Assembly (NCBI GenBank): GCA_965233195.1
Contig: CBDDSB010000026.1
Coordinates: 210,901-274,900 of the forward strand
DNA: 64,000 nucleotides
Source of the DNA: an uncultured bacterium
Lineage (GTDB): Bacteria; Pseudomonadota; Gammaproteobacteria; Burkholderiales; SG8-39
Direction of reading: 5' to 3'
Position 1 is the stretch's first letter. Each line of letters opens with the position of its first letter. The position numbers were made by a program, and so were the translations under genes. This document shows, in pieces, positions 21,543 to 23,361 of this stretch. The notes below the pieces were generated by a model. The model did not search any database, was not told the origin of the DNA, and was given only the letters and a program-made list of their open reading frames with translations.

Positions 21543-23028
21543 CACGAGCACCACGTCCAACGCATTGGCGGTCTACCGTCGTTCCGCCGCTGCCGGGGAA
21601 CCCGCGTCGTATACATGGGGCATTGCCGGGGGCGCATTTGCGGTCGGCGGTATCCAGTCATTTTCCGGCGCTGATGCGGCAAGTCCGATCGACGTTGAGA
21701 GCGGGCAGAGCACCGCAAGCGCCACGGCGCACGACACGCCGAGCATCACCACGAGCGTTGCCAACACCATGCTGGTCACGGCCCACACCTACGCGTCGTC
21801 CAATAGTTGGACCCCACAAGTAGGCCTCACCGAAGGCTTCGACCGGCCAAGCGGCGCGAACAGCACCACAGGACAGTCGGTCACCGGCGGCTATCAGCTC
21901 AAGGCCGCGACCGGAGCATCGGGCGCGAAGCGCTCCACGGCCGGCGGCGGCGCCGATGTCGGCAACACCCACATCCTCGCGCTGCGCCCATTCGTCCCGA
22001 ACACACCGCCGACCGTGAGCCTGACGAGCCCGGCGAACGGCTCGACATTCACCGCGCCCGCGAGCATCACGCTCACTGCCACCGCCGCCGACTCCGACGG
22101 CACGATCCAGAAAGTGGAGTTCTTCCACGGCGGCACCAATCTCATCGCCACCGTCAACACGGCGCCGTACACCTTCCCCTGGACAGGGGTGCCGCAAGGC
22201 TCGTATGTGCTGACCGCGGTAGCCACCGACAACCAAACCGCGACCACGACTTCAGCGCCGGTGAACGTGACGGTGCAAGCGGTGGTTGCGCTCTATTTTG
22301 TCGAAGTCGATCATCTCAACACGCCGCGCCTTGTCGCCAACTCGTCAGGCACGCCGGTGTGGCGCTGGGATCAGCAGGAGCCGTTCGGGGTCAACGTGCC
22401 GGATGAGAATCCGAGCGGGCTCGGTGTGTTTGAGCAGCCGCTGAGATTTCCGGGGCAGTACGCGGATAAGGAGACGAATCTCAATTACAACTACTTCAGG
22501 GACTACGACCCAGGCATTGGACGGTATCCGCAGAGTGATCCAATTGGACTTAAGGGTGGTCCAAACACATACGCCTACGTCGATTCCTCGCCGCTCCTTG
22601 GCGTAGACCCGCGTGGCTTGGTCAAGTGGAAGGGAACGGTCTTTTATCGTGGTACGGGGCCGATTGGCGGAGACATCTATCAGCTAATGTCCGAATGCAA
22701 GTGCGGGATTCAGTATTCGGTGGAGGTAAGAACATTGAATACGGGAACCTCTCGCGGATTCTCTTGGGTCGGGCAGCATATCGAGTTCGACGATCTTATG
22801 GACTGTCCCGATCCCGAAATGCTTGCAGGAGACTACTTAAACATCGGGCTCAGTGTGTCCGCCGGCCTCGGGGGTGGATTTGGTACAACTCTCCTAGGCG
22901 CCGCACAAAGTCCCGGTAGTTGGGGTTGGCAAATGGGATTCTCCGCCTCGGCAGGCCTCTCTGTTGGGAGATCCTGGTTGGAAATCAAGACTGCGATACC
23001 GTGTGGCCCTTGCTCTACACGTAAGTAA
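21391..23028 (+). CDS. Repeat domain + Ig-like domain + Rhs repeat-associated core + unrecognised C-terminal toxin domain
   Basis: Second, full copy of the domain lies at 21412-21990. An Ig-like module lies at ~22006-22275 (TVSLTSPANGSTFTAPASITLTATAADSDGTIQKVEFFHGG...). The Rhs core reads LYFVEVDHLNTPRLV...VWRWDQQEPFG...RFPGQYADKETNLNYNYFRDYDPGIGRYPQSDPIGLKGGPNTYAYV...DPRGL. A ~135-aa Gly-rich tail follows. The only in-frame start after the frameshift is TTG 21391, so independent translation is uncertain. Confidence 0.7.
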   Translation: MALRPASANLAISKPAGTVTGDVMIAAIAFNNSGAAVTPPSGWTLVRRTNNTSTTSNALAVYRRSAAAGEPASYTWGIAGGAFAVGGIQSFSGADAASPIDVESGQSTASATAHDTPSITTSVANTMLVTAHTYASSNSWTPQVGLTEGFDRPSGANSTTGQSVTGGYQLKAATGASGAKRSTAGGGADVGNTHILALRPFVPNTPPTVSLTSPANGSTFTAPASITLTATAADSDGTIQKVEFFHGGTNLIATVNTAPYTFPWTGVPQGSYVLTAVATDNQTATTTSAPVNVTVQAVVALYFVEVDHLNTPRLVANSSGTPVWRWDQQEPFGVNVPDENPSGLGVFEQPLRFPGQYADKETNLNYNYFRDYDPGIGRYPQSDPIGLKGGPNTYAYVDSSPLLGVDPRGLVKWKGTVFYRGTGPIGGDIYQLMSECKCGIQYSVEVRTLNTGTSRGFSWVGQHIEFDDLMDCPDPEMLAGDYLNIGLSVSAGLGGGFGTTLLGAAQSPGSWGWQMGFSASAGLSVGRSWLEIKTAIPCGPCSTRK

Positions 23029-23037
23029 GGAACGGCG

Positions 23038-23361
23038 ATGTCGGTCTTCTATGGCTTGTGGTATTTCCTTGCAGGACTTTTGATCGCAATCACCTGCATC
23101 ACTGGATATTTTGTCTTGCGGGTTAGCAAGGAATTTCCAGAACTATTTGAACGGCTAGGAAAACCCTCGCCCTTCTTCTTCGCAACTGGCTCATGGCTTA
23201 CATCCAGCAAGTTCACTAGTTATTTACTTTCAAGGCAACCAGCGATGAGTTTGTCGTCCGAGCCAGCGCTGCGATTTGCCGCACGTGTCTTGGCGGTTCT
23301 CTACCTGACAATGTTGCTAACCATCTTGGCGGCCGTAACATCCATACTTCTTCGATGGTGA
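23038..23361 (+). CDS. Small membrane protein, candidate immunity protein for the Rhs C-terminal toxin
   Basis: 107 aa. Starts 10 nt after the toxin stop, with an AAGGAA RBS. Hydrophobic helices at both ends (GLWYFLAGLLIAITCITGYFVL and VLAVLYLTMLLTILAAVTSILL). GC is markedly lower than the surroundings. Confidence 0.55.
   Translation: MSVFYGLWYFLAGLLIAITCITGYFVLRVSKEFPELFERLGKPSPFFFATGSWLTSSKFTSYLLSRQPAMSLSSEPALRFAARVLAVLYLTMLLTILAAVTSILLRW

Follow-up and report, generated by a model that had tools for sequence, protein, structure and literature searches.

We analyzed a 64,000 nt-long stretch of DNA from an uncultured Burkholderiales bacterium (contig CBDDSB010000026.1, positions 210,901–274,900; hereafter the window), which carries on its plus strand an Rhs system whose C-terminal toxin tail and neighboring small membrane protein are the subject of this work. 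The system extends from 16.8 to 24.4 kb and is flanked by a panB-like gene on one side and a convergent gene resembling exonuclease III on the other (both identified from their translations), and the remainder of the window consists of chromosomal housekeeping genes (thiC, aceE-aceF-lpd, ilvD, tkt, and waaA). A gene for the YD-repeat shell is followed by an interrupted tip gene that ends in the toxin tail, and this in turn by genes for a 107-amino-acid (aa) membrane protein, a 192-aa lipoprotein, and a 118-aa acidic protein (Table 1).

Table 1 Features of the Rhs locus in window coordinates (ORF, open reading frame; AF2, AlphaFold2; GC3, GC content at third codon positions; dN/dS, ratio of nonsynonymous to synonymous substitution rates)
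Feature	Coordinates	Strand	Basis
Rhs shell gene	16780..20859	+	Pfam RHS_repeat, DUF6531, TIGR01643; signal peptide by reading
5′ part of Rhs tip gene	20856..21542	+	ATGA overlap with shell gene; three-frame reading
3′ part of tip gene	21391..23028	+	Big_7, TIGR03696, and PDB Rhs-core matches
Low-GC island, imported cassette	22300..24400		GC profile
DPIGL-(18 aa)-DPRGL	22537..22620	+	Read from sequence; motif definition PMC9637101
135-aa toxin domain	22621..23028 (stop 23026-23028)	+	Homologue search, alignments, AF2
Cognate immunity candidate, 107 aa	23038..23361	+	Homologue synteny, hydropathy, dN/dS
192-aa lipoprotein	23355..23933	+	Five homologues, alignment
118-aa acidic ORF	24011..24367	+	GC 0.53, GC3 0.61; inside low-GC island

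Several features mark the locus as that of an Rhs or YD-repeat polymorphic toxin, namely a YD-repeat shell, a core that ends in DPxGL-(18)-DPxGL ahead of a variable tail, and a candidate immunity gene directly downstream. The 3′ part of the tip gene encodes, in this order, the second copy of a repeated domain, a Big_7 Ig domain (aa 207-276; Pfam E 2.9e-20), the Rhs core (aa 298-410), and the toxin tail. The TIGR03696 Rhs_assc_core match (E 9.9e-21) covers aa 331-410 and includes the motif DPIGL-KGGPNTYAYVDSSPLLGV-DPRGL, the second half of which (22606-22620) is the end of the Rhs core that had been predicted from the sequence at the outset. The DPxGL motif is an aspartyl autoprotease that releases Rhs C-terminal toxins (PMC9637101). 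PDB matches to the Rhs cores of Tse5, Tse15, and others extend over aa 299-431 at most, and none of the tails of these PDB Rhs proteins is related to that of the window.

A GC-poor block starts within the Rhs core and stops shortly ahead of the exonuclease III-like gene (24451-25224, minus strand). Its GC content is 54.7%, as against 65.3% across the window, and no other 2.1-kb segment of the 64 kb has a lower value (4.3 standard deviations below the mean). GC3 ranges from 0.53 to 0.61 across the four genes of the cassette, compared to 0.81-0.86 for the Rhs shell and panB. The profile thus agrees with the original prediction, which had judged 22.5–24.4 kb to be AT-richer than flanks of ~65% GC and had proposed an imported toxin/immunity cassette. 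The break in composition begins ~200–300 nt upstream of DPRGL, within the conserved Rhs core (GC3 0.69), as would be the case if recombination inside the core had brought in a new toxin/immunity module. The data therefore support a horizontally acquired low-GC cassette as the seat of the toxin/immunity pair. Rfam and promoter/terminator scans of the cassette returned nothing meaningful.

The tail itself comprises 135 aa (22621-23025), in agreement with the coordinates and sequence given in the original prediction. Neither its sequence in Pfam, NCBIfam, and PDB searches nor a 47-sequence profile against the PDB yielded a credible match, so that the earlier statement that the tail lacks a known enzymatic motif stands; the domain is likewise undescribed in the published work that we found. 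While a word-indexed homologue search retrieved only one relative, an exhaustive HMMER search of 1.84 billion representatives gave 80 clusters at E ≤ 1e-3, 20 of them at E ≤ 1e-10. Two long repetitive proteins were excluded as low-complexity matches, and 85 tails were then extracted from the search matches and contigs. Wherever upstream sequence was included for these relatives it ends in an Rhs core, with DPxGL present in nearly all, and nearly all of the domains finish within a few residues of the protein C-terminus. A scan with the alignment of the close subfamily located a single genome locus among 185,579 species representatives, and a metagenome scan with that of a distant subfamily six loci. 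One distant member (P0057) lies directly after a VgrG gene, which indicates that the domain is also used by Rhs proteins of type VI secretion systems (T6SS). On sequence grounds, the tail thus represents an undescribed, rare family of small, apparently non-enzymatic toxin domains.

Conservation was assessed in an alignment of 47 tails. Six residues are invariant (W3, C26, D58, G70, G116, and C128) and a further eight are conserved in ≥90% of the sequences (G5, L22, S24, V36, G84, G93, A95, and G106). None of the conserved positions is a His, Lys, Arg, or Glu, arguing against any plausible hydrolase or transferase center. The small-residue repeats pointed out in the original prediction are real, with Gly, Ala, and Ser making up 58% of residues 76-118 of the window tail, and proved to be a conserved feature of the family. 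The maximal 19-residue Kyte-Doolittle mean of this tail (1.19) falls below the grade of a transmembrane (TM) helix. Where synonymous sites were unsaturated (they were saturated in about half of the pairs), dN/dS of the tail ranged from 0.07 to 0.18, i.e. the domain is under purifying selection. Weak Pfam matches were discarded. Three of the 47 tails, the window tail not among them, gave weak local matches to Pfam DUF992 (PF06186; E 0.026-0.064) over the Gly-rich hairpin, e.g. residues 63-97 on profile positions 83-117 of 143, yet the best of these scored 13.5 bits against a cut-off of 22.7 bits and covered 35 residues only; to our knowledge, DUF992 has no known function. A YadA_anchor match in a single tail (E 0.0026) was considered noise.

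The 107-aa ORF begins 9 nt after the toxin stop codon, which is overlapped by an AAGGAA sequence, and contains two hydrophobic segments (~3-27 and ~80-105) with 19-residue Kyte-Doolittle means of up to 2.1 and 2.4, thereby bearing out the hydrophobic helix at each end and the upstream AAGGAA of the original prediction. Pfam and NCBIfam searches with this protein returned no match. A profile search, in turn, identified eight homologues, all of them encoded directly after the same tail, and tail and partner occur together in nine distinct loci (L001-L014, counting the window). The pairwise identities among toxins correlate with those among partners (r = 0.84, 15 pairs), and the partner is likewise under purifying selection (dN/dS 0.06-0.19, unsaturated pairs). 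The pairing of the toxin with a two-helix membrane protein, originally proposed for the window alone, is therefore kept across the close subfamily. A conserved central motif, G[KR]PTPFFFATGGWLTS..FT.[FY]LLS, lies in a loop with 7-10 Lys/Arg residues as compared to 0-1 at the termini (9/9 sequences); by the positive-inside rule, this loop is predicted to be cytoplasmic, which would leave almost nothing of the partner in the periplasm.

Beyond these nine loci, in distant branches of the family, the toxin is followed by integral membrane proteins of other kinds: ~180-aa proteins with four TM segments (L019, L020), ~160-aa proteins with an N-terminal and one or more C-terminal TM segments (L017, L022, L023/L024), and a 129-aa protein with three hydrophobic segments (L016). 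Overall, a membrane protein adjoins the toxin in 15/15 distinct loci with readable downstream sequence, and these proteins belong to at least four unrelated families. Pore-forming colicins are countered by membrane-embedded immunity proteins. Likewise, polytopic membrane immunity proteins accompany the membrane-inserting toxins Tse5 (Tsi5; PMC9637101) and EsxX (ExiCD; PMC12744356). Membrane-embedded immunity is thus typical of toxins that penetrate the bilayer, which makes these partners the strongest indirect evidence that the target is a membrane.

The cysteines of the tail hint at the compartment in which it may act. C26 and C128 are present in 47/47 tails and C131 in 42/47, while C28 and C62 occur together in 26 tails and are both missing from 21, with no mixed case (Fisher p = 8e-14, shared ancestry uncorrected). 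The domain probably contains two disulfides, one linking C28 to C62 and the other C26 to either C128 or C131 near the C-terminus, which would imply that it folds and acts in an oxidizing compartment, the target-cell periplasm. Joint loss of C28 and C62 argues against a four-Cys zinc site; a match to the CSL zinc ribbon (E 0.22) was rejected, since C28 is absent from 21/47 tails and lost along with C62.

Modeling by AF2 with 41 sequences predicted an all-β tail with a mean pLDDT (predicted local distance difference test) of 83.7 and a pTM (predicted template modeling score) of 0.76. Strands were assigned to residues 2-12, 15-24, 30-42, 51-57, 70-92, and 100-127, and the single short helix to 65-68. 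Across the 47 tails, residues 72-120 show a strict period-2 alternation, in which hydrophobic columns (75, 77, 79, 83, 85, 87, 92, 101, 107, 111, 113, 115, 120) intersperse with columns that are 80-100% Gly/Ser/Ala and nearly free of charge (76, 78, 80, 84, 86, 88, 100, 102, 106, 110, 112, 116, 118). Residues 72-92 and 100-120 fall into predicted strands of 23 and 28 residues, respectively. Sequences and model together thus predict alternating amphipathic hairpins long enough for a bilayer, as is generic for β-barrel pore-formers. Period-2 alternation being a β-strand signature, the two (G/A/S)xxxGxxxG strings of the tail (S78-G82-G86 and S108-G112-G116) are a by-product thereof; unlike the GxxxG-type motifs in the membrane-active helices of Tse4, EsxX, and CdzC/D, they lie in predicted β-strand.

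A structure search, as had been suggested along with the original prediction, left the tail unrecognized, and the AF2 model has strands rather than the helices expected of a glycine zipper. Most of the top Foldseek matches in the PDB were GFP-like barrels, which we dismissed as generic barrel noise (TM-score <0.25). The best probabilities were obtained for the Rhodococcus (Prescottella) equi proteins VapB (0.92; E 0.11, TM-score 0.40/0.47) and VapG (0.57). Vap proteins form an eight-stranded antiparallel barrel in which a single helix separates strand 4 from strand 5 and the strands are arranged in the order 1-2-3-8-5-6-7-4; they have a Gly-rich C-terminal strand and a glycine-rich, 'bald' apolar and uncharged surface that binds lipid or detergent (PMC4118825), and VapA binds and permeabilizes liposomes and collapses pH gradients (PMC10100859). 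Similar to them, the tail is a small secreted domain. Its AF2 order (four strands, the 65-68 helix, two long strand regions) would be compatible with the Vap fold, and its sequence provides a Gly/Ser/Ala face that may point outward or inward. However, the invariant Trp of the tail is N-terminal (W3) with no conserved C-terminal Trp, whereas the core Trp of Vap proteins is C-terminal; Vap proteins also lack conserved Cys pairs, an Rhs carrier, and immunity genes, and act on host phagosomes. Homology at the sequence level was rejected, as hhalign of the 47 tails against VapA, C, D, E, G, and H (NC_011151; the six genes were taken from pVAPA1037) gave a probability of 3.3% over 37 columns. Any resemblance is thus at most one of fold and surface character, and we treat this weak link as a lead, not a classification. 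In the literature, we found no connection between Vap proteins and polymorphic toxins.

Taken together, we favor a reading in which the tail is a periplasm-acting toxin that perturbs the cytoplasmic membrane and is countered by an inner-membrane immunity protein, and assign it a probability of about 0.5. In such a scenario, the cassette would be a horizontal acquisition forming the 3′ end of a split Rhs system that is exported via Sec and encoded on the chromosome of a Gram-negative bacterium, and the tail would be released by the DPxGL aspartyl autoprotease. Stapled by two disulfides, the domain would fold and act in the periplasm of the target cell, with the long β-strands of its C-terminal half presenting one hydrophobic face and one that is nearly pure, uncharged Gly/Ser/Ala. 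Either this Gly/Ser/Ala surface, or the hairpins after rearrangement or oligomerization, would attach to the cytoplasmic membrane, or enter it, from the periplasm, making it leaky to ions and depolarizing the cell. The 107-aa protein, with two predicted TM helices and a cytoplasmic loop, would serve as the cognate immunity protein and, given that almost nothing of it is exposed to the periplasm, could meet the toxin only within the bilayer; the lipoprotein, often present as a third gene in this subfamily, probably has an inner-membrane anchor and may catch the toxin at the periplasmic surface. Of the mechanism put forward in the original prediction, the membrane-targeting effector with an inner-membrane immunity protein therefore remains the best-supported proposal (15/15 loci, no catalytic set), while the glycine-zipper analogy is not supported.

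Several observations weigh against this reading. The tail has no segment of TM-helix grade, its N-terminal strands are short and charged, and the modeled monomer resembles a soluble barrel, meaning that any pore would require rearrangement or oligomerization. Foldseek searches of the PDB with the toxin model gave no significant match (best E 0.075), the Vap matches ranged over E 0.11-0.24 and TM-scores of 0.35-0.47, and the hhalign probability of ~3% renders the Vap analogy weak. The co-occurrence of the cysteines was counted without correction for phylogeny. Immunity proteins embedded in the membrane could also serve to protect a target bound there instead of blocking a pore. Finally, an apparent out-of-frame deletion in the tip gene implies that the window copy may lack export or delivery.

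This interruption was evident from the two reading frames of the tip gene. The 5′ part encodes a signal peptide (MKTHFVRLILLSLAIAALPAQA) and a truncated first copy of the repeated ~200-aa domain before running out of frame to its stop codon, while the 3′ part, as it stands, has no signal peptide. The two repeat copies (window 21007-21476) are offset by 403 nt, i.e. 1 mod 3, and copy 1 is short by about 200 nt. Apparently, an out-of-frame internal deletion has broken the tip gene and parted the toxin ORF from its signal peptide, reflecting either a recent pseudogene or a tandem repeat collapsed in the assembly. It is thus quite conceivable, if somewhat short of an even bet, that the cassette has become a decaying relic in this genome, with a toxin that is no longer exported and immunity genes that alone retain a role, namely to guard against relatives carrying an intact copy. 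Such decay would concern the window copy only and be compatible with any toxin mechanism proposed. The parting of toxin and signal peptide and the 403-nt offset speak for it; on the other side, an assembly-collapsed repeat or a sequencing error would look identical, the tail ORF is intact, as are the immunity genes, and dN/dS relative to the homologues is low, so that any inactivation must have been recent. The relative L007 (81-872) provides a separate instance of toxin decay with the immunity gene kept: its metagenomic toxin copy ends at a stop codon after ...LVRLSTRAA, and an intact immunity gene follows 300 nt downstream.

As for the mechanism, the domain could alternatively be an envelope inhibitor that forms no pore and instead blocks a membrane-associated target from the periplasm—e.g., a cell-wall precursor attached to a lipid, or a transporter or machine of the inner membrane—with the membrane immunity proteins shielding or replacing that target. 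The lack of catalytic residues, the probable disulfides, and the soluble-looking β-domain would all suit an inhibitor, and unrelated families of membrane immunity proteins could be different ways of masking one target. Yet the immunity protein of the close subfamily, with next to no exposure to the periplasm, fits poorly with the shielding of a target on the periplasmic face, an uncharged Gly/Ser/Ala face that alternates with hydrophobic residues lends itself more to contact with lipids than to specific binding of a protein, and no candidate target is known. We therefore consider this alternative unlikely.

Less probable still is an unrecognized enzyme acting, for instance, on lipids or peptidoglycan, with S24 and D58, or else C26, as catalytic residues. 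Many Rhs tails are enzymatic, and the conservation of S24 (46/47), E25 (39/47), C26, and D58 (both 47/47) would be in keeping with an active site. However, a Ser or Cys catalytic set would have to be completed by a conserved His, Lys, or Arg, which the family does not have; C26 co-occurs with the invariant C128, and the two Cys pairs fit disulfides; and the database searches, even by profile, revealed no enzymatic relative in Pfam, NCBIfam, or the PDB. Moreover, immunity to periplasmic enzymes is normally conferred by a soluble or lipid-anchored periplasmic binder, not by a polytopic membrane protein. Least probable of all is a glycine-zipper α-helical pore-former of the Tse4, Tse5-CT, or EsxX type, for which the two (G/A/S)xxxGxxxG strings and the combination of an Rhs tail with two-TM immunity, as in Tse5/Tsi5 (PMC9637101), might be cited, since the small residues recur at every second and not only at every fourth position, AF2 places strands in this region with good confidence (pLDDT 84), the hydropathy stays below that of a TM helix, and no Pfam glycine-zipper family (E ≤ 1 in any of the 47 tails) or PDB chain was matched by sequence.

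Among known systems, Tse5 (RhsP1)/Tsi5 of Pseudomonas aeruginosa is similar in layout to the membrane-perturbing toxin that we favor, in that a small fragment without an enzymatic motif is freed at DPxGL-(18)-DPxGL and faces a two-TM inner-membrane immunity protein. Tse5-CT forms ion-selective pores and depolarizes cells (PMC9637101, PMC10684867), and Tsi5 has two TM regions (PMC9637101). In sequence, phmmer and profile comparisons with PDB chains detected no similarity between the tail and Tse5, with chain 8cp6_B aligning to the Rhs core only and a separate Tse5-CT chain being unconfirmed in that set. The two differ in further respects: a helical structure that includes TM helices is predicted for Tse5-CT, whereas the tail is predicted to be all-β with conserved Cys pairs, and Tse5 is delivered by a T6SS, whereas the window Rhs carries a Sec signal peptide and lacks T6SS genes in its vicinity.

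The few known membrane-targeting polymorphic toxins (Tse5-CT, Tse4, Ssp6, EsxX, and the ionophores of contact-dependent inhibition systems) are helical. Rhs and other polymorphic toxins are a main source of new antibacterial mechanisms, and an all-β, Cys-stapled domain of ~135 aa without a catalytic set would attack the cell envelope by a structurally novel route; its small size makes it amenable to direct biophysical study, and its neutralizing partners come ready-made. A bolder proposal, which we regard as doubtful, is that a disulfide-stapled, Vap-like 'bald' barrel might be the first β-structured membrane-permeabilizing Rhs toxin, acting on the bacterial cytoplasmic membrane from the periplasm and countered in the bilayer by small polytopic immunity proteins; in that case, the toxin would also offer a genetically tractable antibacterial model, with toxicity and immunity as read-outs, for the membrane disturbance caused by the R. 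equi Vap proteins. Should the Vap resemblance be real, an unsolved virulence-factor mechanism would be linked to bacterial warfare.

The lipoprotein gene overlaps the stop codon of the immunity gene by 7 nt. Its product has no match in Pfam or NCBIfam, and the homologues (n = 5) share an LLAGC lipobox, Asp at position +2, two invariant Cys residues, and an invariant C-terminal RGVYWESTNAWD. Asp at +2 is an inner-membrane retention signal in E. coli, a rule that varies among taxa. The lipoprotein gene comes after the immunity gene in the window, L005, L006, L010, and L013 but is missing from L001 and L015, which suggests an accessory rather than a core immunity factor. AF2 modeled the protein as a generic β-sandwich (pLDDT 74), for which Foldseek returned only jelly-roll matches or ones resembling carbohydrate-binding modules. 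A reasonable guess is that the lipoprotein serves as an accessory or second, periplasm-facing layer of immunity. By analogy, its pairing with a membrane protein could amount to a division of labor like that in immunity to EsxX of Staphylococcus aureus, a membrane-depolarizing polymorphic toxin with more than one kind of immunity (ExiAB and ExiCD), including polytopic membrane proteins that guard against toxin from outside (PMC12744356). EsxX differs, however, in being an LXG toxin of a type VII secretion system with a helical glycine zipper and no sequence relationship to the tail, and its second immunity pair is cytoplasmic instead of a periplasmic lipoprotein. The last gene of the cassette, the acidic ORF, has no Pfam or NCBIfam match either and may be an orphan immunity gene; at the corresponding position, L005 encodes an ankyrin-repeat protein.

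A second point worth specialist attention is that the Rhs carrier is split, with the shell and the signal-peptide-bearing tip encoded as overlapping genes. The shell ORF contains 19 stretches that match Pfam RHS_repeat (PF05593; E 2.7e-68) and 12 that match TIGR01643. Its true start is probably the ATG at 16918 (MRATLAAIPRKVR...), and the likely N-terminus, MRATLAAIPRKVRSTIRHIARLALPLFLFSAAAPATQA|AP, reads as a Sec signal peptide. At the other end, the protein terminates in ...ELIYLGDIPVGVVQ*, with an identical stop position in L001, and at 20856-20859 an ATGA joins the shell stop to the start of the tip, which has a Sec signal peptide of its own followed by extra β domains, the final portion of the Rhs core, and then the toxin. 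Both the shell end, IYLGD(I/V)PVGVVQ*, and the split are conserved in L001, where a GTGA overlap is found at 205-208 and the tip is intact. L015 comprises several tips in an array, and one or more of them start with a signal peptide followed by repeated β domains; L005 carries the ordinary, unsplit Rhs form. Given split genes that each specify a signal peptide, shell and tip-plus-toxin appear to be separate secreted proteins in the window lineage. Shell, core, and toxin are hence not united in one polypeptide as is typical of Rhs/YD-repeat polymorphic toxins; this is a variant architecture and not an exclusion from the Rhs family. The split loosely resembles the TcB and TcC proteins of Tc toxins, and an Rhs cocoon of two polypeptides with a separately exported tip seems unusual. 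The shell gene lacks a PAAR domain, no VgrG gene is adjacent, and no T6SS genes were seen near the Rhs locus in the 64-kb window.

Further observations concern regions outside the toxin cassette. The N-terminal ~250 aa of the shell between the signal peptide and the YD repeats (16918-17700) are rich in Cys, with ten Cys within residues 1-207 of the listed ORF and only a weak Pfam DUF6531 match (aa 256-323), and, judging from the sequence, may form a receptor-binding or anchoring domain. In the tip, the duplicated ~200-aa domain before Big_7 (20990-22000; ...LAISKPAGTVTGDVMIAAIAF...THILALRP) has no Pfam match and may be a receptor-binding module; by eye and unaligned, a similar domain precedes Big_7 in the family member P0033. 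The primary tip of L001 (205-2052) ends in a PLA2G12-like phospholipase tail, with a gene for a 99-aa membrane protein next to it (2063-2362), and the tail studied here forms a second cassette behind this phospholipase tip, its tip fragment starting inside the Rhs core. Another tip of L015 (3010-3969) has an extremely Gly-rich tail (GGVVGGGIVGGSGGNLGGFSFGGGADIGAGAAAGV...) with Cys at the end, followed by a small ORF (~3990-4184) that looks like a two-TM protein by eye; this tail may be a further relative or analogue of the toxin family described here.

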